DNA from: Candidatus Latescibacterota bacterium
Lineage (GTDB): Bacteria; Latescibacterota; UBA2968; UBA8231
Length of the DNA: 64,000 nt
Reading direction: 5' to 3'
NCBI GenBank assembly: GCA_965242865.1
Contig: CBDETK010000013.1
Span: 4,960,001-5,024,000, forward strand
The translations under genes and the position numbers were made by a program. How positions within the stretch are numbered: the first letter of the stretch is position 1; every line of letters starts with the position of its first letter. The notes beneath the pieces are model-generated. The model searched no databases and was not told the DNA's origin. It worked only from the letters and a program-made list of their open reading frames with translations. This document shows, piece after piece, positions 3,701 through 43,048 of this stretch.

Positions 3701-4178
3701 TGGGCGCAACTTCCTCAGCGGCTATCCCTATTTCACCGACTCTGGTTCCAAGCTGCTCTACGCACGCATCGGCTACGGGTTTCCAATCCTCAGACGCATC
3801 AGCAGCCGCTTTATCAACTTCAGCTTTTCCAAGCTCTACGCCGAGCTATTCGCCGAAGCCGGGGCGGTGGGCAACTTCTCGCGCTTTGAGGACATTGACT
3901 TTTGGAAGGGAAAGCCTTGGCGGTCTTGGCCCAACACCGACAAGTTCCTGACCAACGTGGGCGGCGAGCTGCGGCTACAGCTTTTTACCTTCTACCGCAT
4001 CCCCATGTTCGCTTACCTCCAAGTGGCGCGTCCGCTCGAGTCGGCGCGAGTGGAGTGGTTCGATCCAGAGCCATCCGAGGACGACCCGGACCCCGAATCC
4101 TATCTGACCGTGAGGAACTCCGAAGGCAAACGGGGCAGGATCGACACATGGCGCTTCTACTTTGGGTTTGGGCTGTGA
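756..4178 (+). CDS. Outer-membrane protein: signal peptide, HExxH gluzincin-like peptidase domain, TolB/PD40 beta-propeller and Omp85/BamA-like barrel
   Basis: THELTHI plus downstream WTEGIA; repeated SPDG PD40 motifs; GGRNFLSGYP loop; C-terminal beta-signal WRFYFGFGL. Confidence 0.75.
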   Translation: MRRAIFSAMAALLLAGAAQAQIQTIVTDHFRVHFSRGAEGTARRVAETCEEVFPILAAAYNYYDDFRTIHVIVLDNSDVLGNGWANYYSNTMAIWATSLDFELRGSHDWIKNVVTHELTHILTLNKARKKWPFQFALLSVSRFDSNPDIAFQFPLYHLNAPRGWTEGIAQYGAHKFGYDSWDSHRDMLLRMAVLEDDLLSWDEMGTVGDRTGKFYGEFVYNQGYAMMVYIHQQYGAEKVDELTHQIGALSFDPAIRRVLGISADQFYADWVAFLADNYGRLTSEIRGQGFFQGAPLDEVNEGVLEYHPALSPDGKKLAYLTSEEQDYAITTLKIYDFETQKKTELKGWIDTRIGWSPDGEEIVFVRNKGGFNDLYLYNLAEDEERRISARLRAKDPSFSPDGQRIAFVHNEDGTNNLGLIDRDGTDLVYLTNNNDATQYMGPRFSPDGEWLLFSVFRGQDRDIAMIRADSPPRPKHFKKAEKKKSEDEEGAEETIEVFPDTVAFAHPDSSGFRAVVASPADERDPYWLPDGSGFVFSSDQSGIFNIYRYRLANDEVEQLTNVIGGAFVPTVAADERVVYSGYHSNDYSLYRFELGEFARAAHFEPVAMRDYRSIFDGPKLSDQYQVASYRGRNVLRYIPILQVGPTFVGNAFGLNQASGGLQFSTGDMFGGQELTAWGIAGKNIRDDTDLNTDVGFFYERRLRPQVGNNRTFNPSFYIRGRRREIDSLGKTIDVATDTLAASTLYPVPVDSVSSVLIPDVERRVYQYDSRQNLLKTVLGQISMGVDVPLTRRTELNAQYLWRNYAESHTLRRRRIKSQVYLVQDGVDMSETVDPAILVQDTLLVDSENPQKYYDDLSFFRAHILSASWRYLKINPTADSSINPSGRALSLVYRYLLPTVADSLAEQTPTDGVPRDQYVGAEHRLRVNEYVAAYNERIRLPFNNSLNITLIGAYENIRLKPRFDPEGGIYEGRFYWPLRYYIGGRNFLSGYPYFTDSGSKLLYARIGYGFPILRRISSRFINFSFSKLYAELFAEAGAVGNFSRFEDIDFWKGKPWRSWPNTDKFLTNVGGELRLQLFTFYRIPMFAYLQVARPLESARVEWFDPEPSEDDPDPESYLTVRNSEGKRGRIDTWRFYFGFGL

Positions 4179-4206
4179 AGTGACGGAGCAAAAAAGGAGA
4201 GAAAAC

Positions 4207-4509
4207 ATGCACTTTATCTTGTCGTGGGATATTCGAGATGCAGCCGAGGAGTGGGACGAAATCAACGCCCAGCTAAAAGAGCGCATAGACGACTATTCTT
4301 GGGTTCGTCCCCTCAGCACTTTTTACATCATAAGGGTGTCCGGTCCGCAAGAGTGGAGACGGATTAAGGAAGCCCTTATTGAGGTAGCCGAGCGTTATGC
4401 TGCCAAAGCCAAGATACATTTCGTCATTAGTCCCTTAATGGTTGGCGGCCAATACGATGGCTGGCTGCCCAATGATATTTGGCCCAAAATACAAAAGAGG
4501 ACAGCTTAA
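4207..4509 (+). CDS. Small Cas2/VapD-like ferredoxin-fold protein ('SinR family'-like), 100 aa
   Basis: SD AGGAGA before ATG 4207; N-terminal MHFILSWDI resembles the Cas2/VapD beta1 'hhhhYDI' motif; C-terminal YDGWLPxxxW; AT-richer than flanks. Confidence 0.6.
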   Translation: MHFILSWDIRDAAEEWDEINAQLKERIDDYSWVRPLSTFYIIRVSGPQEWRRIKEALIEVAERYAAKAKIHFVISPLMVGGQYDGWLPNDIWPKIQKRTA

Positions 4510-4868
4510 TGGAGGCCACAAGCAAAGACGTAGAATCTCGTGTAAAGCACGATGAGGCTAATCCCGAGTCGCCTCCTAGTAGTGCAGGATTTGCGGAAAG
4601 GCTTAACAGACTGGTTTCCGTGCCCGAGACCATTGAAATTGAGTTGGTAAATTCGGCTACCCTCGATGAATATGAATTTCGGGCGTACCTATCTTCTGTT
4701 CTTGCCACTGTCGTAATAGGCTTCTTCTTCGCAATTGTACAATCTGGCCCGTCATTTCCAATGATATTCTGTGGGATTGTATCCGCCGTTTTGTTTGGTT
4801 TCTGTGCAAAGTCCGCCCGTGATAAACGAAGGCAATTGAAGCAAAAAGCAAAAAAGATCAGGCTGTAA
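4509..4868 (+). CDS. Two-transmembrane-helix hypothetical protein, 119 aa
   Basis: TAATG stop/start overlap with the upstream gene; hydrophobic segments AYLSSVLATVVIGFFFAIV and FPMIFCGIVSAVLFGFCA; basic tail. Confidence 0.7.
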   Translation: MEATSKDVESRVKHDEANPESPPSSAGFAERLNRLVSVPETIEIELVNSATLDEYEFRAYLSSVLATVVIGFFFAIVQSGPSFPMIFCGIVSAVLFGFCAKSARDKRRQLKQKAKKIRL

Positions 4869-4925
4869 ACTGAGCGGCTAATTGTTTGGCCGCATCCTCT
4901 CACCCCGCCCCCCATCCTTTCTATC

Positions 4926-5075
4926 GTGACGCGCAGAGAATCAGACGGGAAAATTGATCGGCACAAGCTAACTTTGCGGCGCAAGGTGCTGGCGCTGATC
5001 CATGGCTACGCCCAGCGTCGCGCCTTGGACGAGCGATCCTACCGACGCTGGCGACGCTGGATTCGGCCCAACTGA
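4926..5075 (+). CDS. Possible small basic protein (49 aa)
   Basis: GTG...TGA, MTRRESDGKIDRHKLTLRRKVLALIHGYAQRRALDERSYRRWRRWIRPN; fills the gap up to the convergent pgsA stop; no clear SD. Confidence 0.4.
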   Translation: MTRRESDGKIDRHKLTLRRKVLALIHGYAQRRALDERSYRRWRRWIRPN

Positions 5076-5077
5076 CG

Positions 5078-5602
5078 TCAAGTTTGCTCGCGTCGCGAGA
5101 GCCTGAGCGCGAGTTGGACATAGCTCGCGCTGGAGATGACGACCAAGGCTGCCGCGGCGAGGCTCAGCCCCGTGCGCACGCTGGACGGAGCCTCGAGGAC
5201 GTAGCTGAAGGCCGTCAGGGCCATGCAGACGGTCGTGTACTTGCCCCAGCGGTTGGCGGCAATGACCAGCCCCTGTGAACGCAGGAGCACCCCCCCCACC
5301 AGCACGATTGCCAAGTCGCGGACCAAGAGCATCCCCAACAGCCACAGCGGCAAATCGCCCCACCAGACTAGGGCGCCGAGTAGGCAGGCGAGAAAAACTT
5401 TATCGGCCAGTGGGTCGAGTACCTTGCCGAGGCGGGAGACTTGATTGTAGTGCCGCGCCACCCAGCCATCGGCGAGGTCCGTGGCCCCGGCCATGAGCAG
5501 CAGGAGCACGACTTGGAACTGGGCCGCTGGGCCTTGGGCGATGAAGTAGAGCACAAAGGGGATGAGTAGAACCCGCAGGACGCTGAGAAAATTGGCCAAC
5601 AT
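5078..5602 (-). CDS. pgsA: CDP-alcohol phosphatidyltransferase (PgsA-like)
   Basis: ANFLSVLR start; DLADGWVAR...GKVLDPLADK signature. Confidence 0.85.
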   Translation of the reverse strand: MLANFLSVLRVLLIPFVLYFIAQGPAAQFQVVLLLLMAGATDLADGWVARHYNQVSRLGKVLDPLADKVFLACLLGALVWWGDLPLWLLGMLLVRDLAIVLVGGVLLRSQGLVIAANRWGKYTTVCMALTAFSYVLEAPSSVRTGLSLAAAALVVISSASYVQLALRLSRREQT

Positions 5603-5609
5603 CGTCGGG

Positions 5610-7301
5610 CTATTGCAGCATTTCGCGGGCGTGTTGGCGCGCGGTGTCCGAAATGGTTTCGCCGGCCAACAGATAGGCAATTTCTTCGGCGCGGGCCTTG
5701 GCGTTGAGCTGCACGACCTCGGTGGTGGTCCGCTGCTGCGCCTGCTGCTTACGCACTGAAAAGTGCTGGTCGGCGAGGCTGGCAATCTGCGGTAGATGGG
5801 TGATGACAATGGTTTGGTGGGCTGCGGAGAGGGACTGTAGCTTGCGGCCGACGGCCGCGGCAATGCGCCCCGAGATCCCCACGTCGATTTCGTCGAACAC
5901 CAAGGTCGAAACGAGGTCGCGCCCGGCGATAGCTTCCTTGAGGGCCAGCATCACGCGCGAAACTTCCCCGCCCGAGGCAATGCGCGCTAGGGGGCGCGGG
6001 GGTTGGCCGGCGCTCGCGGAAATGTGGAAGGCGACGTGCTCCATGCCGTGCTCGCCGGCGGCGTACCGACGCCCGTCGCGCTCAACCGCCCCTGTTGGGT
6101 CCTCGGTCGTCTCCAGCTCGATGTAGAACTGGGCCTTGGCCATGCCCAACTCTCCGAGGGCGGCGACTAGCAATCGAGACAGGGTGGCGCTGGCCTGCTG
6201 ACGCGCCGCAGAAAGGGCTAGGCAGCCGGTGGCAAACTCGGCGAGTGCGCGATCGCGGACTTCAGCCGCTTGGGCCAGCTCGTCGCGGAGGCGGCCGGCG
6301 CGGTCGGCGCGCGCCGAAAGCTGGCGGGCGCGCGCTACGACAGCGTCGAGGGTGCCGCCGTATTTCTTTTTTAGGGTGCGTAGGCCGTCGAGGCGCTCGC
6401 GCAGTTCGTCGGCCCGCCCGGGGCGCACCTCAATTTTGTGGGCGTAGTCGCGCAGTTGGCCAGCTAGGTCTTCGACCTCGTAGATCAGTTCCGCTAAGGC
6501 CGCGGCTTGGGGGTCGAGCGCCGGGTCGATTGCACGGAGCCGGTCGAGCTGACGACGAACTTGGCCTAGCGCTTCGCACACCGCGCCTTCGCGCTGGTAG
6601 AGCAGGTCGTAGAGCTGGAGGCCGCCCTCGGCTAGGGTCTCGGCGTTTTCAAGGACTTGCAACTCGCGCTCTAGCGCGGGCTCTTCGCCCGGTTGAGGGG
6701 CGAGGCCGCGGATCTCTTCCAACTCAAAGGCGCGCAGCTCGTCTTCGGCGGCCAGCGCGTCGCGCTCGGCGCGCAGTTGGTTGAGGCGGGCGGCGCTATC
6801 GCGGCTAGCGCGCCAGTGCTGTGCCACGAGGCGACGCTGGTCGTCGAGGCCGGCAAACGCGTCGAGAAAGCGGACGTGGAGCTTGGGGTCGAGCAGTGAT
6901 TGGTGTTCGTGTTGGCCGTGCAGGTCCACCAAGATCGCGCCGATTTGCTTTAGTTGCTTGATGGGCTGGCCTTGGCCGTTGACAAAGGCGCGCGAGCGGC
7001 CTCGGGCGCGGATCTCGCGGCGGAGGATGAGTTGGCCGTCCTCCAAGACAACGCCCAGCTCGGCCAAACGCCCGCCTTGGCTTGGGTCGTTGAGTTCAAA
7101 AAAGCCCTCGACCGCGCACGAGCTGGCCCCTTTGCGCACGAGCTCGGCGCTGACAGGCCCGCCGAGGATGGAGTTGAGGGCACCGATGAGAATGGACTTG
7201 CCAGCCCCGGTCTCGCCGGTTACGACGTTGAGGCCTGGGCCGAATTCGATGGCCGCTTCTTCGATAAGGGCAAAGTCCTTGATGTAGAGGCGCGTCAACA
7301 T
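5610..7301 (-). CDS. recN: DNA repair protein RecN
   Basis: TGETGAGKS Walker A, HGQHEHQ, ASGGE signature, FDEID, ITHLPQIA. Confidence 0.97.
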   Translation of the reverse strand: MLTRLYIKDFALIEEAAIEFGPGLNVVTGETGAGKSILIGALNSILGGPVSAELVRKGASSCAVEGFFELNDPSQGGRLAELGVVLEDGQLILRREIRARGRSRAFVNGQGQPIKQLKQIGAILVDLHGQHEHQSLLDPKLHVRFLDAFAGLDDQRRLVAQHWRASRDSAARLNQLRAERDALAAEDELRAFELEEIRGLAPQPGEEPALERELQVLENAETLAEGGLQLYDLLYQREGAVCEALGQVRRQLDRLRAIDPALDPQAAALAELIYEVEDLAGQLRDYAHKIEVRPGRADELRERLDGLRTLKKKYGGTLDAVVARARQLSARADRAGRLRDELAQAAEVRDRALAEFATGCLALSAARQQASATLSRLLVAALGELGMAKAQFYIELETTEDPTGAVERDGRRYAAGEHGMEHVAFHISASAGQPPRPLARIASGGEVSRVMLALKEAIAGRDLVSTLVFDEIDVGISGRIAAAVGRKLQSLSAAHQTIVITHLPQIASLADQHFSVRKQQAQQRTTTEVVQLNAKARAEEIAYLLAGETISDTARQHAREMLQ

Positions 7302-7322
7302 CGGGCCGAAGCCGAGGGGCGG

Positions 7323-7553
7323 CTATTGATCGTCTTGGTCGTCCAGAAAGGAGAGGCGGAACTGGCCCTCGGCGTCGGCCGTGAGGACTTGGACGCGCTC
7401 GCGGGTCTGGTCGAGCCACTGGCCGCAGGTGCGCGAGGCCGCGACGCCCTTTTCAAATACTTTGAGGGCCTCTTCGAGCTTGAGGTCGCCGGCTTCGAGG
7501 CGCTGGACGCTCTCTTCGAGCACGGCTAGCGATTCTTCAAACGATTCACTCAT
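7323..7553 (-). CDS. xseB: Exodeoxyribonuclease VII small subunit
   Basis: SFEESL..LE..V..LEAGDL.LEEALKVFEKG; adjacent to xseA. Confidence 0.93.
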   Translation of the reverse strand: MSESFEESLAVLEESVQRLEAGDLKLEEALKVFEKGVAASRTCGQWLDQTRERVQVLTADAEGQFRLSFLDDQDDQ

Positions 7554-8766
7554 CGAGTTTCTCCTCCACGCGGCATATAGCGCGGCCGCGGCGAAAGCGC
7601 AGGTGTAGTTTGTCGCCCGGCTGGAGTTCGTTGCTGTCGCGGATCAGGCGTTGGGTGGCGATGTGTTCGGCGAGGGCAAAACCGCGCGCCAAGCTCGTAA
7701 GCGGGCTGAGGTCGTCGAGGCGGGTGGTGGCGTTGGCTAGGGCCTCAACCCGAGTGCGCAAAAACCAATCGAAAGCGGTATAGAGGGCTTGACGCCGCTC
7801 GTCGAGGTGCAGGCTCTGCTGCTGCAAGCGGTCGTCGAGGCGGGCGCACAGCCGGCTCGGCTCGCAGTGGCGCAACCGCTCCGCTAAGGAGCGGAGGTAG
7901 CGCTCCATTTCCGCTCGCAACCGGCCTTGTTGTTCGGCGACTCGTGCGCGCAGCGCACTGCGTTCGCGGGCGACCATTTCGGCTGCAGCCGACGGGGTTG
8001 GGGCGCGGCTGTCGGCCACGTAGTCGGCGATGGTGTAATCGATCTCGTGGCCGACGGCCGAGATGACGGGTTGGGGCGACTGGTAGATGGCCCGGGCGAC
8101 GGCTTCGTCGTTGAAGGGCCAGAGGTCTTCTGGAGCGCCGCCGCCGCGCCCGACGATCAACACGTCGATGTCGGCTAGCTGGTTTAAGCGGGCGATGGCT
8201 GCGGCGATCTCAGCGGCGGCCCCCTCGCCTTGCACCCGAGCGGGGCAGAGGACGATGGCGATGTCTGGGGCGCGGCGGTCGAGGACTTGGATGATGTCGC
8301 GGATGGCCGCGCCGGTTGGCGAGGTCACCACGCCGATTTTGCGGGGATACGGGGGCAGGGGACGCTTGCGGTTTTCGGCGAAAAGCCCTTCGGCCTCTAA
8401 GCGATTTTTGAGCTGCTCAAAGGCGATGGCCGACTCGCCGACGCCAGCGGGTTTGAGCTGCTCGGCGTAGAATTGGTACTTCCCCCCGCGCTCGTACACG
8501 GAGATGCGCCCGTACGCCTGCACCTGCATGCCTTGTTGGGGCGTGAAGGAGACCGACCCGGCTTTCCATTTGAACATCACCGCGCTTAGCTGGCTCGCGT
8601 TGTCTTTGAGCGTGAAATAGCGGTGGCCCGAGCTGTGGTGGTTGTACTGGGAGAGCTCGCCCTCGACCCAGCAGGGGAGCAAGGCCTCCTCGAGCAGGCC
8701 CTTGACTTGACTGGTGATTTCGGACACCGAGTACGGCCGGTGGGATGCGGACTCTTGAAAAGACAT
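7546..8766 (-). CDS. xseA: Exodeoxyribonuclease VII large subunit
   Basis: SGHRYFTLKD OB fold, VTSPTGAAIRD, GRGGG, SAVGHEID, APTPSAAAE; start chosen at ATG 8766. Confidence 0.96.
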   Translation of the reverse strand: MSFQESASHRPYSVSEITSQVKGLLEEALLPCWVEGELSQYNHHSSGHRYFTLKDNASQLSAVMFKWKAGSVSFTPQQGMQVQAYGRISVYERGGKYQFYAEQLKPAGVGESAIAFEQLKNRLEAEGLFAENRKRPLPPYPRKIGVVTSPTGAAIRDIIQVLDRRAPDIAIVLCPARVQGEGAAAEIAAAIARLNQLADIDVLIVGRGGGAPEDLWPFNDEAVARAIYQSPQPVISAVGHEIDYTIADYVADSRAPTPSAAAEMVARERSALRARVAEQQGRLRAEMERYLRSLAERLRHCEPSRLCARLDDRLQQQSLHLDERRQALYTAFDWFLRTRVEALANATTRLDDLSPLTSLARGFALAEHIATQRLIRDSNELQPGDKLHLRFRRGRAICRVEEKLDE

Positions 8767-8842
8767 GGGATCCAGTTGGGGAAGCGGAAGCGGAAGCAGA
8801 GGCCGATTTAGGCCAACAGGATAGGCCGTTGTAGAGGCGAGG

Positions 8843-9625
8843 TCAAGGCTCTGCGAGCTGCAAGCGCTCGATGCGAAGGGCCCGGCCGCTGGCCGCGTCG
8901 GCCTCGACAAGCACACCGCAGAGGACGGCTTGGCCATCGGCGGGCTTGAAGCGGGTGGGAACTTGGGTGAGGAAGCGTTGGATGGCCAATTCGCGCCGGA
9001 CGCCAATCACGGATTCGCGGACGCCGGTCATGCCGGCGTCGGTTAGGTACGCCGTGCCGTTGGGCAGGATGCGCTCGTCAGCGGTCTGGACATGGGTGTG
9101 GGTGCCGATGAGCGCGGTGGCCAGACCGTCGAGGTGAAAGCCCAGGGCCATTTTCTCGGCCGTGGCTTCGGCGTGAAAATCCACAAAGACTAGGGGGGTC
9201 TCAGCGCGCTGGCGTTCGATTTCGGCGCGGCCGGTGCGGAAGGGGCAGTCGGTGACGGGCATCCCGGTGCGCCCTTGCAGGCAGAGCACGGCCACTGGGG
9301 TGCCATCGCGGGCGGCGACGACGGTTGAGCCGATGCCGGGGGCGTCTTGGGGGTAGTTGAAGGGGCGCAGGACGCGGCTTGACTGGGCTAGATGGGGGAT
9401 GAACTCGCGGCGGTCCCAGACGTGGTTGCCGCTGGTGATGATGTCGATGCCATAGCTGTGCAGCTTGTGGGCAATGCCCTCGGTGAGGCCAAACCCTCCG
9501 GCCGCATTTTCGCCGTTGGCGATTACTAGCGCGATGTCGCGCTGTTGCACCACCTCGGGAATCAGGGCCGCGGCGACCCGGCGACCCGGCCGGGCAAAGA
9601 TATCAGCGACGAAGAGAATGTTCAC
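8843..9625 (-). CDS. ymdB: YmdB-like metallophosphoesterase (2',3'-cyclic nucleotide phosphodiesterase)
   Basis: NGENAAGG, TSGNH, DFHAEATAEK, GTHTHVQTAD; GTG start overlaps the rny stop. Confidence 0.92.
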   Translation of the reverse strand: MNILFVADIFARPGRRVAAALIPEVVQQRDIALVIANGENAAGGFGLTEGIAHKLHSYGIDIITSGNHVWDRREFIPHLAQSSRVLRPFNYPQDAPGIGSTVVAARDGTPVAVLCLQGRTGMPVTDCPFRTGRAEIERQRAETPLVFVDFHAEATAEKMALGFHLDGLATALIGTHTHVQTADERILPNGTAYLTDAGMTGVRESVIGVRRELAIQRFLTQVPTRFKPADGQAVLCGVLVEADAASGRALRIERLQLAEP

Positions 9626-11196
9626 CGCGCGTACGACTCGGCGCGCATTTCGCGGATAATGCAGACGCGTAACTGCCCGGGGTAATCGAGCTGTTGCTCG
9701 ATTTTGTGGGTAATTTCGTCGGCGAGTTGTTCGGCATACGTGTCGTCCACCATCTCGCTGTCGACGAGCACCCGAATCTCCTTGCCGTTTTGCAGAGCAA
9801 AGGCTTGCTTGACGCCCACGCAGTCGGCCGCGAGTTCCTCGATGTGCTGCAAGCGGCGGATGTACTCCTCGACTTTTTCTTTTCGCGCGCCCGGGCGGTG
9901 CGTAGAGATTTCGTTGGCGGCTTCGACCAATACGGCCGTGGCCGAGCGCGAGGGCGTGTGTTTGCTGTAGGTTTCGATGATCTGCACGACTTCCGGGCTT
10001 TCGCCGCACTTGCGGGCCAGAACGGCGCTGCTTTGCGCTGGGTCGTTGCCCAACTCAAAGTCCTGGGTCTTGCCAATGTCGTGCAAGAGCCCAGCGCGGC
10101 GAGCCAGTGCCACATCGAGATTGAGCATTTCGGCCATCATGCCAGCCAAAAACCCGACTTCCCTGCTGTGGACCAATACGTTTTGCCCGTAACTGGTGCA
10201 GAAGCGGAGCTTGCCCAGCGTTTCTAGGAGCGGCTCGGATAAGTCGTGGATGCCGAGGTCAAAGGCGGCTTTGGAGCCGGACTCGCGGATCATCTCCTCA
10301 ACGGCGCTGCGAGCCTTGTCGTACACTTCCTCGATGCGCCCGGGGTGGATGCGGCCGTCGCGGATGAGCGTTTCGAGGGTGCGTCTGGCCACCTCGCGGC
10401 GCAGGGGATCAAAACTCGAGAGCATGACCATGCCCGGGGTATCATCGACGATGACTTCGACGCCGGTGATCATTTCAAAAGAGCGGATGTTGCGCCCGTC
10501 GCGGCCGATGATGCGGCCCTTCATGTCGTCGAAGGGAATGGGCAACACCGAAAGGGTGCTCTCGACGGTCAATTCCCCGGCAAAGCGCTGGATGGCGCGG
10601 GTGATGATTTCCTTGGCCTCTAGGTTGGCCGTGGCAATCGCGGTGTCCTTGATCTCGCGGACCTTGCGGGCGGCGACTTGGTGGGCACTCTGCTCTAGCT
10701 GATCGACGAGTATGGACCGGGCCTCTTGCTGGCTGATGCCGGCCAATTCTTCCAGCCGCTGGCTTTGCTCGCGGACGAGGTCTTGCGCTTGGGTCTCAGC
10801 GGCCGCTATGGCGGCCTCGCGGCGGTTGAGGTCTTGCTCGTTCTTGAGCTGTTCGCGCTCCTTGCTCGTGAGCAGGTCTATTTTGCGCTCTAGTTGTTGC
10901 TCGCGCTCTAGCAGCTTGGCCGCGAGGTCGCGCAACGAGCGGCGCTGGGTCTCTTGCTCCTTTTCCAACGGGGCGCGCTCGCGGTGCCACTCGTCTCGCG
11001 CTTCGAGCAAAGCGTTTTTTTTTAGGGTTTCGGCTTCTTGGCGGGCGCGGGTGACGATCTGGTCGGCGGTAGCTTGCGTGCCGCGCAGTCTGCTGCTGCG
11101 CAGCCGCCCGTTCCCCAACCAGCCGAGGAGACAGCCAACGGCGAAAAAGGCCAAGGCACAGCCTAGTAGGACTAGATAGTCAAACCCATCAAACAC
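9622..11196 (-). CDS. rny: Ribonuclease Y (HD domain divergent)
   Basis: N-terminal TM, coiled coil, KH domain MKGRIIGRDGRNIR, TSYGQN, LLHDIGK, RPGAR. Confidence 0.92.
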   Translation of the reverse strand: MFDGFDYLVLLGCALAFFAVGCLLGWLGNGRLRSSRLRGTQATADQIVTRARQEAETLKKNALLEARDEWHRERAPLEKEQETQRRSLRDLAAKLLEREQQLERKIDLLTSKEREQLKNEQDLNRREAAIAAAETQAQDLVREQSQRLEELAGISQQEARSILVDQLEQSAHQVAARKVREIKDTAIATANLEAKEIITRAIQRFAGELTVESTLSVLPIPFDDMKGRIIGRDGRNIRSFEMITGVEVIVDDTPGMVMLSSFDPLRREVARRTLETLIRDGRIHPGRIEEVYDKARSAVEEMIRESGSKAAFDLGIHDLSEPLLETLGKLRFCTSYGQNVLVHSREVGFLAGMMAEMLNLDVALARRAGLLHDIGKTQDFELGNDPAQSSAVLARKCGESPEVVQIIETYSKHTPSRSATAVLVEAANEISTHRPGARKEKVEEYIRRLQHIEELAADCVGVKQAFALQNGKEIRVLVDSEMVDDTYAEQLADEITHKIEQQLDYPGQLRVCIIREMRAESYAR

Positions 11197-34417: not shown

Positions 34418-34491
34418 GGCGACGTGGCCAAGTGGTAAGGCAGGGGCCTGCAAAGCCCTTATCCCCGGTTCGATTCCGGGCGTCGCCTCCA
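34418..34491 (+). tRNA. tRNA-Cys(GCA)
   Basis: GGCGACG/CGTCGCC acceptor stem, anticodon loop CTGCAAA, GGTTCGATTCC, CCA end. Confidence 0.97.
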
Positions 34492-34506
34492 TTTTTTTGC
34501 CCGTGT

Positions 34507-34594
34507 GCCGGGGTGGCGGAATTGGTAGACGCGGTGGACTTAAAATCCACTGTCCGCTTAGGACGTGCCGGTTCGAGTCCGGCCCTCGGCACCA
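34507..34594 (+). tRNA. tRNA-Leu(TAA)
   Basis: GTGGA-CTTAAAA-TCCAC anticodon arm, long variable arm, GGTTCGAGTCC, CCA end. Confidence 0.97.
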
Positions 34595-35750: not shown

Positions 35751-37382
35751 CTACCGAATACCCAGCGCGATGCTCGATGGAATATTCAATCCCGGGATGG
35801 GGAGGTCTTCGACCTGTAAGTCATTTACATTTAGGTTCGCCCGCTGAATCTTAGCCGTGGCAAGGTCTGTCCAGTACACCTTTCCGCCTGCCAAATCCAG
35901 CGCGATGCCCGCTGGATCACCCAATCCCGGGATGAGGAGGTCTTCGACCTGTAAGCCATTTAGGTTCGCCCGCTGAATTTTATTCGTGGTAGAGTCTGTC
36001 CAGTACATCCTTCCGCGAGTCAAATCCAGCGCGATACCCTGTGGCGTCATCAATCCCGGGATGGGGAGGTCTTCGACCTGTCTGCCATTCAGGTTGGCCC
36101 GCTGAATTTTATTCGTGCCAGTGTCTGTCCAGTATATCTTTCCGCGAGTCAAATCCAGCGCGATACCCTGTGGCGTCATCAATCCCGTAATGAGGTCTTG
36201 GATCTGTCTGCCATTCAGGTTGGCCCGCTGAATTTTATCTGTGCCCCAGTCTGCCCAGTACATCCTTCCGCTCACCAAATCCAGCGCGATGCCCGATGGA
36301 TTACTACCTATTCCCGTGTTGATGAGGTCTTCGACCTGTGAACCATCGAGATTGGCCCGCTGAATTTTTTTTCTGTTCCAGTCTGTCCAGTACATCTTTC
36401 CACGCACCAAATCCAGCGCGATGCCCGATGGCGTACCCACGGTGGTGAGGTGTTCGACCTGTGAGCCATTTAGGTTGGCCCGCCGAATCATACCCGTGCC
36501 ATTGTCCGTCCAGTATAGGGCGGGCACTTGTACGACGGGTGGTTCCGTCGATTCCGGTTGGACGGTTTCGACGCGGGGGTATTTTTCGATCACCGCTTCG
36601 ACGCGGAGGCCGCTGGCGATTGCGGCGGCGAGCTGTTGGTTGGCGGCGTGCTGGCTGAGGGCGTTTTCCATCACGCCCAGCCATTGCAAGTTAGTCAGGC
36701 TCGCCAACGGACTGATATCCGCAATCTCGTTGTCTCCTAGCTGGAGCCATTGCAGGTTCGTTAGGCCGGCTAACGGCTGCACATCCGTAATTTCGTTGCC
36801 CCACAGCGACAGCTTCTGAAGGTTGATAAGACCCGCCAGCGGACTGACGTCCGCAACCTCGTTGCCCCACAGCGACAGCGATTGCAGGTTGGTCAAGCTG
36901 GCCAACGGACTCACGTCCGTAATCGCGTTGTCCCGCAGATACAGCGTGTGCAGCGCCGTTGCGTGTTCGAGGCCGGCCACGCTCTCAATGTTTTTATGGC
37001 TCGCGTCGAGTTCGGTCAGGGCCGCCAAGTCTGCCGGGGTCAGGGGCCCTGACGGGCGATCCAACGCCTCCCGCACTGCCTGCTCCAGATTGGCGTCGGC
37101 GAACTCAACGACCGCCGATTGGGTGCTGTCAGCGTCAGCGTCGGCTTCAGTCTCGGTGCTATCAGCTTCGGCTTCGGTTTGGGTGGTGTCAGGGCTTTCG
37201 GGGGCGGCCAGTCCGTCGGTAGCGGTGTAGGTGTCGTCGCCCAAGAATTCGCATAAGGAACAGGTGGCTTTGCCGGCAGGACGAGAAGCGACCGGCGCGG
37301 AGTCTGAGCAGCCCATCCAAGCACCGACGACGCCCAAAAGGACGAACGCAAACAGGGTTTTTACCGATTTCAACAAAGACAT
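35751..37382 (-). CDS. Lipoprotein with internalin-like LRRs and a six-bladed YWTD (LDL-receptor class B) beta-propeller
   Basis: AAGGAG SD, signal ending WMGC, FADANLEQAVR cap, about six 22-aa LRRs, six YWTD/YWAD repeats. Confidence 0.9.
   Translation of the reverse strand: MSLLKSVKTLFAFVLLGVVGAWMGCSDSAPVASRPAGKATCSLCEFLGDDTYTATDGLAAPESPDTTQTEAEADSTETEADADADSTQSAVVEFADANLEQAVREALDRPSGPLTPADLAALTELDASHKNIESVAGLEHATALHTLYLRDNAITDVSPLASLTNLQSLSLWGNEVADVSPLAGLINLQKLSLWGNEITDVQPLAGLTNLQWLQLGDNEIADISPLASLTNLQWLGVMENALSQHAANQQLAAAIASGLRVEAVIEKYPRVETVQPESTEPPVVQVPALYWTDNGTGMIRRANLNGSQVEHLTTVGTPSGIALDLVRGKMYWTDWNRKKIQRANLDGSQVEDLINTGIGSNPSGIALDLVSGRMYWADWGTDKIQRANLNGRQIQDLITGLMTPQGIALDLTRGKIYWTDTGTNKIQRANLNGRQVEDLPIPGLMTPQGIALDLTRGRMYWTDSTTNKIQRANLNGLQVEDLLIPGLGDPAGIALDLAGGKVYWTDLATAKIQRANLNVNDLQVEDLPIPGLNIPSSIALGIR
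35790..36520 (-). repeat. Intragenic tandem repeats of roughly 125-135 bp encoding the YWTD blades
   Basis: 48-nt block identical at 36011-36058 and 36140-36187; GCCCGCTGAAT and AAATCCAGCGCGAT recur in most units. Confidence 0.9.
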
Positions 37383-38310: not shown

Positions 38311-38387
38311 GTGCCCATAGCTCAGTTGGATAGAGCATCTGCCTTCTAAGCAGACGGTCGTAGGTTCGAGTCCTACTGGGCACGCCA
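38311..38387 (+). tRNA. tRNA-Arg(TCT)
   Basis: GTGCCCA/TGGGCAC acceptor stem, TCTGC-CTTCTAA-GCAGA, T-loop, CCA end. Confidence 0.97.
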
Positions 38388-38404
38388 TGCAGGTCCCAGT
38401 TAGT

Positions 38405-38482
38405 GGTGGGTGTAGCTCAGTTGGTTAGAGCGCCAGGTTGTGGCCCTGGAGGGCGCGGGTTCAATTCCCGTCATCCACCCCA
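38405..38482 (+). tRNA. tRNA-His(GTG)
   Basis: G-1:C73 pair, CCAGG-TTGTGGC-CCTGG, GGTTCAATTCC, CCA end. Confidence 0.96.
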
Positions 38483-42971: not shown

Positions 42972-43048
42972 GCACCCATAGCTCAATTGGATAGAGCACC
43001 TGACTACGGATCAGAAGGTTCGGGGTTCGAGTCCCTGTGGGTGCGCCA
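42972..43048 (+). tRNA. tRNA-Arg(ACG)
   Basis: GCACCCA/TGGGTGC acceptor stem, CTACGGA anticodon loop, CCA end; TTGACG-17-TATTTT at 42925-42953. Confidence 0.96.

Follow-up and report, generated by a model that had tools for sequence, protein, structure and literature searches.

We consider here a small two-gene cassette in the genome of a Candidatus Latescibacterota bacterium (assembly GCA_965242865.1, contig CBDETK010000013.1). The window, i.e., the whole stretch of DNA that was analysed, covers 64,000 nucleotides (positions 4,960,001 to 5,024,000 of the forward strand), and coordinates below are counted from its first letter. An AT-rich islet in this window holds gene A, for a small soluble protein, and gene B, for a membrane protein; the stop codon of A and the start codon of B overlap in the motif TAATG, and A starts 28 nt past the stop codon of an upstream open reading frame (ORF) of 1140 amino acids (Table 1). 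A preliminary description, made from the letters alone, had proposed the pair as a candidate defence or toxin-antitoxin cassette with a Cas2/VapD-like protein. The coordinates, the lengths and the TAATG coupling that it gave are verified, and the islet is indeed AT-richer than its surroundings, with a guanine-plus-cytosine (GC) content of 47.1%, where the window as a whole has 60.7% and the two flanks 59.8% and 63.5%. Its name for the upstream gene, Omp85, finds no support: the Pfam matches are PD40 β-propeller repeats (a TolB-like propeller), DPPIV_N and a weak Peptidase_MA_2, while the C-terminal half of the protein has no Pfam match.

The gene pair and its related loci

Do the two genes belong together? 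A genome scan with A gives 18 matched stretches and returns 13 related loci (L001 to L013), which makes 14 loci with the window. Nine are labelled Latescibacterota or Latescibacteria, one Gemmatimonadetes and one a gammaproteobacterial metagenome-assembled genome (MAG), and two come from Desulfosarcina widdelii and Marinobacter salarius; L001 and L008 are two copies of the cassette on a single chromosome. B lies directly 3' of A in seven of the 13 related loci (L001, L006 and L009 to L013; tblastn, E<=1e-3). In the other six only the first codons of B remain, at the same overlapping start, so the expected pairing with a gene for a protein of two transmembrane helices is seen, as B or its remnant, in 13 of 13 related loci and in 14 of 14 with the window. 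The stop and start codons overlap as TAATG or ATGA in the window and its relatives, and the pairing holds where the identity of A has fallen to 43-46% (Desulfosarcina, Marinobacter and the gammaproteobacterial MAG). VapX, VapY, VapW, cas1 or a CRISPR array is the partner in none of the 14 loci. No Cas family is found among 57 scanned proteins, made up of 48 neighbours from the related loci and nine window ORFs. The window had been said to have neither a CRISPR array nor cas1, and the first part stands (no CRISPR family at the Rfam threshold, no array from Tandem Repeats Finder); for cas1 the search covers nine ORFs scanned in the first 11 kb, among which no Cas family is found. Chance ORFs are ruled out for A and B by conservation and by the ratio of nonsynonymous to synonymous substitution (dN/dS), and by tblastn neither gene has another copy in the window.

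In every locus the cassette stands out from its flanks by a foreign composition, and it is scattered across phyla. Gene A has a GC content of 40-48% in 14 of 14 loci, with flanks at 49-71%, and the loci fall into six distinct genomic contexts across several phyla; the proposal of horizontal acquisition is upheld by both observations. The window shares its context with L001 (about 90% DNA identity over the aligned 1 kb), in which the cassette is bordered by a PD40/peptidase-like gene and, at its other end, by pgsA, recN, xseB, xseA, ymdB and rny. L002 to L009 all lie at one variable site, bordered by an FG-GAP/ASPIC gene and a gene for a SurA-like peptidyl-prolyl isomerase (about 5900-10300 in each locus). 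The cargo of this hotspot differs among the Latescibacterota genomes and includes an MmeI-type IIG enzyme, NsnABC, and IS1595 and DDE_3 transposases; the IS1595 transposase is seen in L003, NsnA, NsnB and NsnC follow the cassette in L008, and the MmeI-type IIG enzyme, NsnA and insertion sequence genes follow it in L009. The neighbours are QueF and PhyH in L010, and PCuAC and panB in L013. A type II methylase, MTaX1, PbeA and PbeC stand behind the cassette in L011, and L012 has a Dam-type (type II) methylase upstream and the Lamassu genes LmuA, LmuC and LmuB downstream. Defence systems are thus frequent neighbours: Lamassu, Pbe, Nsn or type IIG restriction adjoins four of the 13 related loci and three of the six contexts, a sample too small for an enrichment statistic. 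A position in defence islands, as had been suggested, would fit these four loci and not the window copy, which lies among housekeeping genes.

The features of the cassette are collected in Table 1. A scan for sigma-70-like promoters finds none on the + strand in 3900-5200. Just 3' of the islet lies an Arg-rich ORF of 49 amino acids with a GTG start (4926-5075, + strand), which has the GC content of the host itself and no Pfam or PADLOC match. Its DNA is well conserved in L001, unlike the 55 nt that separate it from the stop codon of B, and it could be either a conserved leader or a small gene native to the host. Farther away in the window are long tandem repeats (35762-36953) that probably belong to a gene for a repeat protein, with periods of 129, 132 and 66 nt at 72-79% matches, and five tRNA genes (34418-34591, 38311-38479 and 42972-43045).

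Table 1. Coordinates of the cassette, its parts and the adjoining features in the window
Feature	Position	Strand	Remarks
Upstream ORF, 1140 aa	756-4178	+	stop codon 4176-4178
Islet holding both ORFs	4171-4873	+	
Left 13-mer, GGCTGTGAAGTGA	4171-4183	+	covers the stop codon of the upstream ORF
Shine-Dalgarno-like site, AGGAG	4195-4199	+	7 nt ahead of the start of gene A
Gene A, 100 aa, MHFILSWDI...	4207-4509	+	ATG 4207 to TAA 4507-4509
Gene B, 119 aa, membrane protein	4509-4868	+	ATG 4509 to TAA 4866-4868
B residues 37-56, acidic membrane-adjacent segment, SVPETIEIELVNSATLDEYE	4617-4676	+	most conserved part of B
B residues ~59-102, pair of hydrophobic helices with the short turn QSGPSFP between them	4683-4814	+	hydropathy, AlphaFold
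B residues 103-119, basic tail, ARDKRRQLKQKAKKIRL	4815-4865	+	net charge +8; K106 and R107 invariant
Right 13-mer, GGCTGTAAACTGA	4861-4873	+	overlaps the stop codon of B

Anatomy of the two proteins

A word-index search with A gives 23 relatives (43-83% identity), and an exhaustive search over clusters at 50% identity finds 218 cluster representatives with E<=1e-3, of which 97 have E<=1e-10; almost all are about 98 amino acids long. Nothing significant is found for A or B in Pfam, NCBIfam, PADLOC or PHROGs; at E<=10, A has no match in Pfam, and neither protein has one in PADLOC-DB v2. The remark that the pair could not be assigned to a named defence system is therefore correct as far as the PADLOC models go. 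No helix-turn-helix, ribbon-helix-helix or AbrB domain is found in A or B.

The AlphaFold model of A, built on an alignment of 24 sequences, has a predicted local distance difference test (pLDDT) of 85.4 and a predicted template modelling score of 0.76. Its elements are β1 (2-10), α1 (16-27), β2 (31-36), β3 (39-43), α2 (47-63) and β4 (69-76), followed by a loop and a C-terminal helix (89-99). According to the model, the core of this soluble protein, whose family is unnamed, is a ferredoxin-like β-α-β-β-α-β fold. The loop past the core is conserved and Gly-rich (SPxMxGGxYxGxLPxxxW), and it is here and in the helix that the best-kept residues of the family sit. Among 106 diverse members these are G85 (106), W92 (105), P76 (104), Y83 (94), L87 (93), H2 (92) and G81 (91), all of them, H2 excepted, in the loop and helix past β4. 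We know of no Cas2 with such a C-terminal loop and helix. The loop past β1 tolerates changes of length: the closest relative of A (L001, 6001-6321) has an insertion of 21 nt (seven codons) there compared with the window copy, and two family representatives (P0003 and P0012) have insertions in the same loop.

We examine the likeness of A to Cas2 and VapD by structure and by sequence. A Foldseek search of the PDB with the model puts Cas2 structures at the top (5h1o with E 3.2e-4 and TM-scores of 0.63/0.72, then 4qr0, 3oq2, 7f84 and 4es1-3). VapD (6zi1) comes at rank 34, and other ferredoxin-like folds (MTH1187-like, Dabb/ABM and PII-like) score within about tenfold of the top match; among the viral structures of BFVD nothing reaches E<=0.001 and no named relative appears. 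At the level of sequence, profile searches of the PDB with our A-family profiles A1 and A2 give chance-level matches, with no Cas2 or VapD among them. PF09827, the sole Pfam family matched by more than one A-family member, is matched weakly by three of the 106 (best E 0.018), and the Atlas search with A gives unnamed clusters and one cluster with a 15% share of Cas2 (rank 17, score 0.81). A comparison by hhalign of the A family (A2) with 30 Cas2 sequences built from the pSYSA cas2 reaches a probability of 1.2% (P 0.043), a weak test as the Cas2 profile is narrow (effective number of sequences 1.8); this match, although not significant, has the elements in the correct order and sets W7-D8-I9 of A on the Y-D-L motif of Cas2. 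The claim of a Cas2/VapD-like protein thus survives for the fold and fails for membership by sequence.

The residue D8 had been taken for the catalytic Asp. It is invariant in 24 of 24 close relatives (the alignment of the window copy), while across the 106 diverse members position 8 is Asp in just 62, Glu in 19, Ser in five, Gln in five and Asn in three. S31 is Ser in 40 of the 106. In summary, A is Cas2-like in shape, its homology to Cas2 is unproven, and a catalytic centre of the Cas2 type is doubtful.

B has 12 relatives besides the window copy, and it agrees well with the earlier picture of two transmembrane helices and a basic tail. The hydrophobic stretches lie at about 57-81 and 80-103, and the net charge is -7 over residues 1-58 and +8 over the tail. 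The AlphaFold model is a helical hairpin (41-82 and 85-116), with pLDDT of 76-84 over the hydrophobic part and a disordered N-terminus. Ahead of the first membrane helix lies the acidic segment, with the consensus VSVPETIEIELVDSSVLxxYE, in which S37, P39, E43, V47, L52, Y55 and E56 are invariant in 19 sequences. The best match of B in the family libraries, STM3941_fam (E 0.0017), is far below the cut-off, and the Atlas search with B gives unnamed clusters only.

Loss of B, retention of A and the possible readings

The decay of the pair is lopsided. Gene A is full length in all loci, and its dN/dS, compared between nine loci, lies at 0.126-0.472 in every one of the 36 pairs, indicating purifying selection; in four pairs in which both members are without the membrane part of B (L002-L004, L002-L007, L003-L005 and L004-L007) it is 0.13-0.19. 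For B, an alignment of the DNA with L006 shows the part that encodes the membrane hairpin to be deleted in L002, L004 and L005, with end points in L002 that differ from those in L004 and L005, and L003 and L007 resemble L004 by translation. In L008 the first 17 codons of B are joined to the C-terminal part of the type IIG enzyme, an enzyme that is intact in L009. In all, the membrane part of B was deleted at least three times. A milder change is found in L001, where CAA has become TAA and the last eight residues of B, in the basic tail, are dropped. Because B is lost repeatedly and A is kept, B would be the costly or dangerous partner and A useful, or harmless, by itself, which is the opposite of what is expected if A were a toxin restrained by B.

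Two kinds of fusion bear on the same question. Behind B in L006 stands a gene C (6704-7165, + strand, 153 amino acids), which in L002 to L005 and L007 is fused to the start of B. Gene C has no Pfam match; its similarity to the PADLOC candidate PDC-M32A, in the C-terminal part of the latter, is weak (E 3.8e-7). In addition, A is fused to a linker and one or two C-terminal hydrophobic segments in three of the 150 family representatives listed, and two of these fusions (P0059 and P0142) have a basic tail as well. Such chains support the idea that A may work at the membrane together with B, and they would fit a stable complex at least as well as a classical toxin-antitoxin pair. A complex prediction for A with residues 30-119 of B returned no answer (score 0.00) and counts neither way.

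Combining these observations, we favour, tentatively and with a confidence somewhat short of even, the reading that the two genes form a conflict module, a toxin-antitoxin or abortive-infection pair that moves horizontally; both families are unnamed, and B would be the effector and A its controller. The two proteins would be made from one message, A being translated just ahead of B. B would insert as a hairpin that leaves both the acidic membrane-adjacent segment and the basic tail in the cytoplasm, where A could bind it, probably at the conserved acidic segment, and hold it inactive. A would then be either the antitoxin of B or a sensor that releases B on infection. B would be set free once A disappears or is titrated away, whether through a phage product or because the cassette has been lost; it would then assemble and damage or depolarise the membrane, and growth would stop. 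The anatomy of the pair, its constant adjacency, its mobility, its defence neighbours and the pattern of loss are observed, and the binding of A to B, the toxicity of B and the trigger are inferred. We also count the order of the genes in favour of the conflict module: in type II toxin-antitoxin pairs a small soluble gene in front and an overlapping toxin gene behind it is a common layout, and the cassette, with soluble A first and the putative toxin B second, matches it.

A number of points weigh against the conflict module. The window copy and L001 have no defence neighbour and lie between the PD40/peptidase-like envelope gene and pgsA-recN-xseBA, and L010 and L013 have no PADLOC neighbour either. 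No relative is found on plasmids or phages by tblastn with A, and none in PHROGs. By Pfam, A is without the DNA-binding domain that most type II antitoxins carry. What we call decay could be an exchange of effectors, and the fusions of the start of B with gene C could be working variants, since gene C resembles PDC-M32A. Finally, just 13 contexts were examined, and the eight loci of the shared hotspot (L002 to L009) are not independent of one another. A wider proposal, which includes such an exchange and which we regard as speculative and rather unlikely, is that the A proteins are a common, so far undescribed branch of the Cas2-shaped ferredoxin folds that no longer acts as a nuclease and has become the cytosolic sensor or latch of a membrane-hairpin killer, so that A and B would form a new minimal two-gene abortive-infection system reaching from Latescibacterota to Proteobacteria, with modular exchange of the effector (the hairpin swapped for the gene-C domain).

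Alternatively, the pair may have nothing to do with conflict. A could dock on B in a small membrane complex of accessory function, for example in stress, signalling or the envelope, which happens to ride on mobile DNA. The window copy and L001 would suit such a role, as they stand directly behind an envelope-type gene at a 28-nt spacer and without a promoter-like site of their own; so would the metabolic neighbours in L010 and L013, the lack of a PADLOC match for A or B, and the fusions of A to membrane segments, which suit a stable complex better than a toxin-antitoxin pair. The foreign composition in 14 of 14 loci, the patchy distribution across phyla, the four of 13 loci that have Lamassu, Pbe, Nsn or type IIG restriction next to them, and the repeated deletion of B speak against an accessory complex, and we consider it unlikely. 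Closer to the preliminary description is the possibility that A is a true nuclease toxin of the Cas2/VapD type, with Asp8 binding metal, and that B is a membrane antitoxin or anchor that sequesters it. That Cas2 gives the best structural matches, that D8 is invariant in the close relatives, that W-D-I falls on Y-D-L in the hhalign comparison, and that PF09827 and the Cas2-containing Atlas cluster turn up at all would be consistent with this. The hhalign probability, the failure of both profiles to recover Cas2 or VapD, the variability of D8 and S31 across the 106 members, the conserved C-terminal loop and helix without a Cas2 counterpart, and the scores of other ferredoxin-like folds within tenfold of the top match all argue the other way. 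A toxin, moreover, should not outlive the loss of its antitoxin, yet A is intact and constrained where the membrane part of B is gone; and the main text of the VapD census (PMC11980593) has no occurrence of the word "membrane", and so mentions no membrane partner. We therefore judge a nuclease toxin restrained by B to be distinctly improbable.

The ends of the islet raise a separate question, since it had been described as flanked by a direct repeat. The letters of the two 13-mers and their identity at 11 of 13 positions are as described; their role as a boundary mark does not hold up. They could be target-site duplications, or the halves of an attachment site, of a tiny integrated element, marking the exact insertion. 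Each of the two, one at either end of the AT-rich stretch, spans a stop codon, which falls at the same place in both (GGCTG-TGA and GGCTG-TAA), and a 13-mer with at most two mismatches between boundary zones of ±30 nt arises in only 2.6% of shuffles. With wider zones the frequency rises to 5.5% (±50 nt) and 20% (±100 nt), and a repeat search finds ten comparable direct-repeat families within the same 1.5 kb. The right copy is also the 5' arm of a weak terminator-like hairpin (4861-4879) with a T-rich tail behind it. Neither copy is kept in L001, the closest relative, which has the same insertion site (left GGCTGTAGAGTGC, right GGCTGAGCGGATA, per the alignment layout), and the islet has no integrase or transposase. 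We take the repeat for a chance match and not for a credible boundary mark, and an element bounded by it is very improbable indeed.

If the conflict module is real, it would be a compact defence or addiction module made from two families that have no entry in Pfam, NCBIfam, PADLOC or PHROGs, and the A family, with its 218 clusters, is not rare. The Cas2/VapD-shaped proteins would thereby gain a branch linked to the membrane. That Cas2, the CRISPR adaptation subunit, descends from toxin-antitoxin components is a long-discussed idea, on which such a branch would bear. The module would also be a simple system, of just two proteins, in which to study the control of a membrane killer by a small soluble partner. 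The link of a Cas2-like shape to a membrane protein is unusual; two-gene candidates for defence are in general common, and the interest would be modest were the pair an ordinary accessory membrane complex.

Comparison with known systems

The cassette cannot be shown to belong to Cas2/VapD, to a PADLOC system or to a named toxin-antitoxin family, and it has features in common with several of them. In its proposed way of working it would resemble a small type II toxin-antitoxin or abortive-infection pair whose effector is a membrane protein. With Cas2 (PF09827) A shares the length of about 100 amino acids, the β1-α1-β2-β3-α2-β4 ferredoxin-like core and an acidic residue near the end of β1 in a hydrophobic-aromatic-D-hydrophobic motif (WDI in A, YDL in Cas2). 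It differs in having no significant sequence or profile match, in an Asp that is not conserved family-wide, and in the C-terminus, which is the last strand in Cas2 and the Gly-rich loop and helix in A. It also differs in its surroundings: A is paired with a membrane protein, there is no Cas family among the 57 neighbours, and the window has no CRISPR array.

The resemblance to VapD is that of a small ferredoxin-fold protein in a mobile two-gene cassette. According to the VapD census, VapD toxins are distantly related to Cas2 and form type II pairs with the antitoxins VapX, VapY or VapW, partners that are soluble SH3-fold or VapD-like proteins; VapW is an inactivated copy of the VapD fold that is able to serve as an antitoxin (PMC11980593). 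In A the catalytic Asp/Ser pair is not conserved, VapD ranks only 34th in the fold search, and the decay points to the partner B, and not to the ferredoxin-fold protein, as the harmful one. Among the papers searched, mostly at the level of listings and abstracts, we find no description of a Cas2/VapD-like protein paired with a membrane protein.

B calls to mind small membrane-hairpin killers such as the class II holins and the membrane-acting toxins of toxin-antitoxin and abortive-infection systems, with a pair of membrane-spanning helices, termini that both lie in the cytoplasm and a C-terminal tail that is strongly basic. The two predicted helices and the strongly basic tail of B are of this kind; the long acidic N-terminal extension with its conserved membrane-adjacent segment sets B apart, as do the absence of a sequence match to any family and of a lysis gene or phage context near the cassette. 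Some CBASS, Pycsar, retron and type III CRISPR systems have transmembrane effectors coupled to a soluble sensing or regulating part. The coupling of soluble A to membrane protein B is comparable, and the fusions of A to membrane segments mimic single-chain sensor-transmembrane effectors, although the cassette has no cyclase, reverse transcriptase or Cas10 and matches no PADLOC model. With type II toxin-antitoxin systems the cassette shares two small, co-directional, coupled genes on mobile or variable DNA. Overall, the reading of A as a Cas2 nuclease has partial support, and the pair is a credible new mobile conflict cassette in which a Cas2-shaped protein would control a membrane-hairpin effector.

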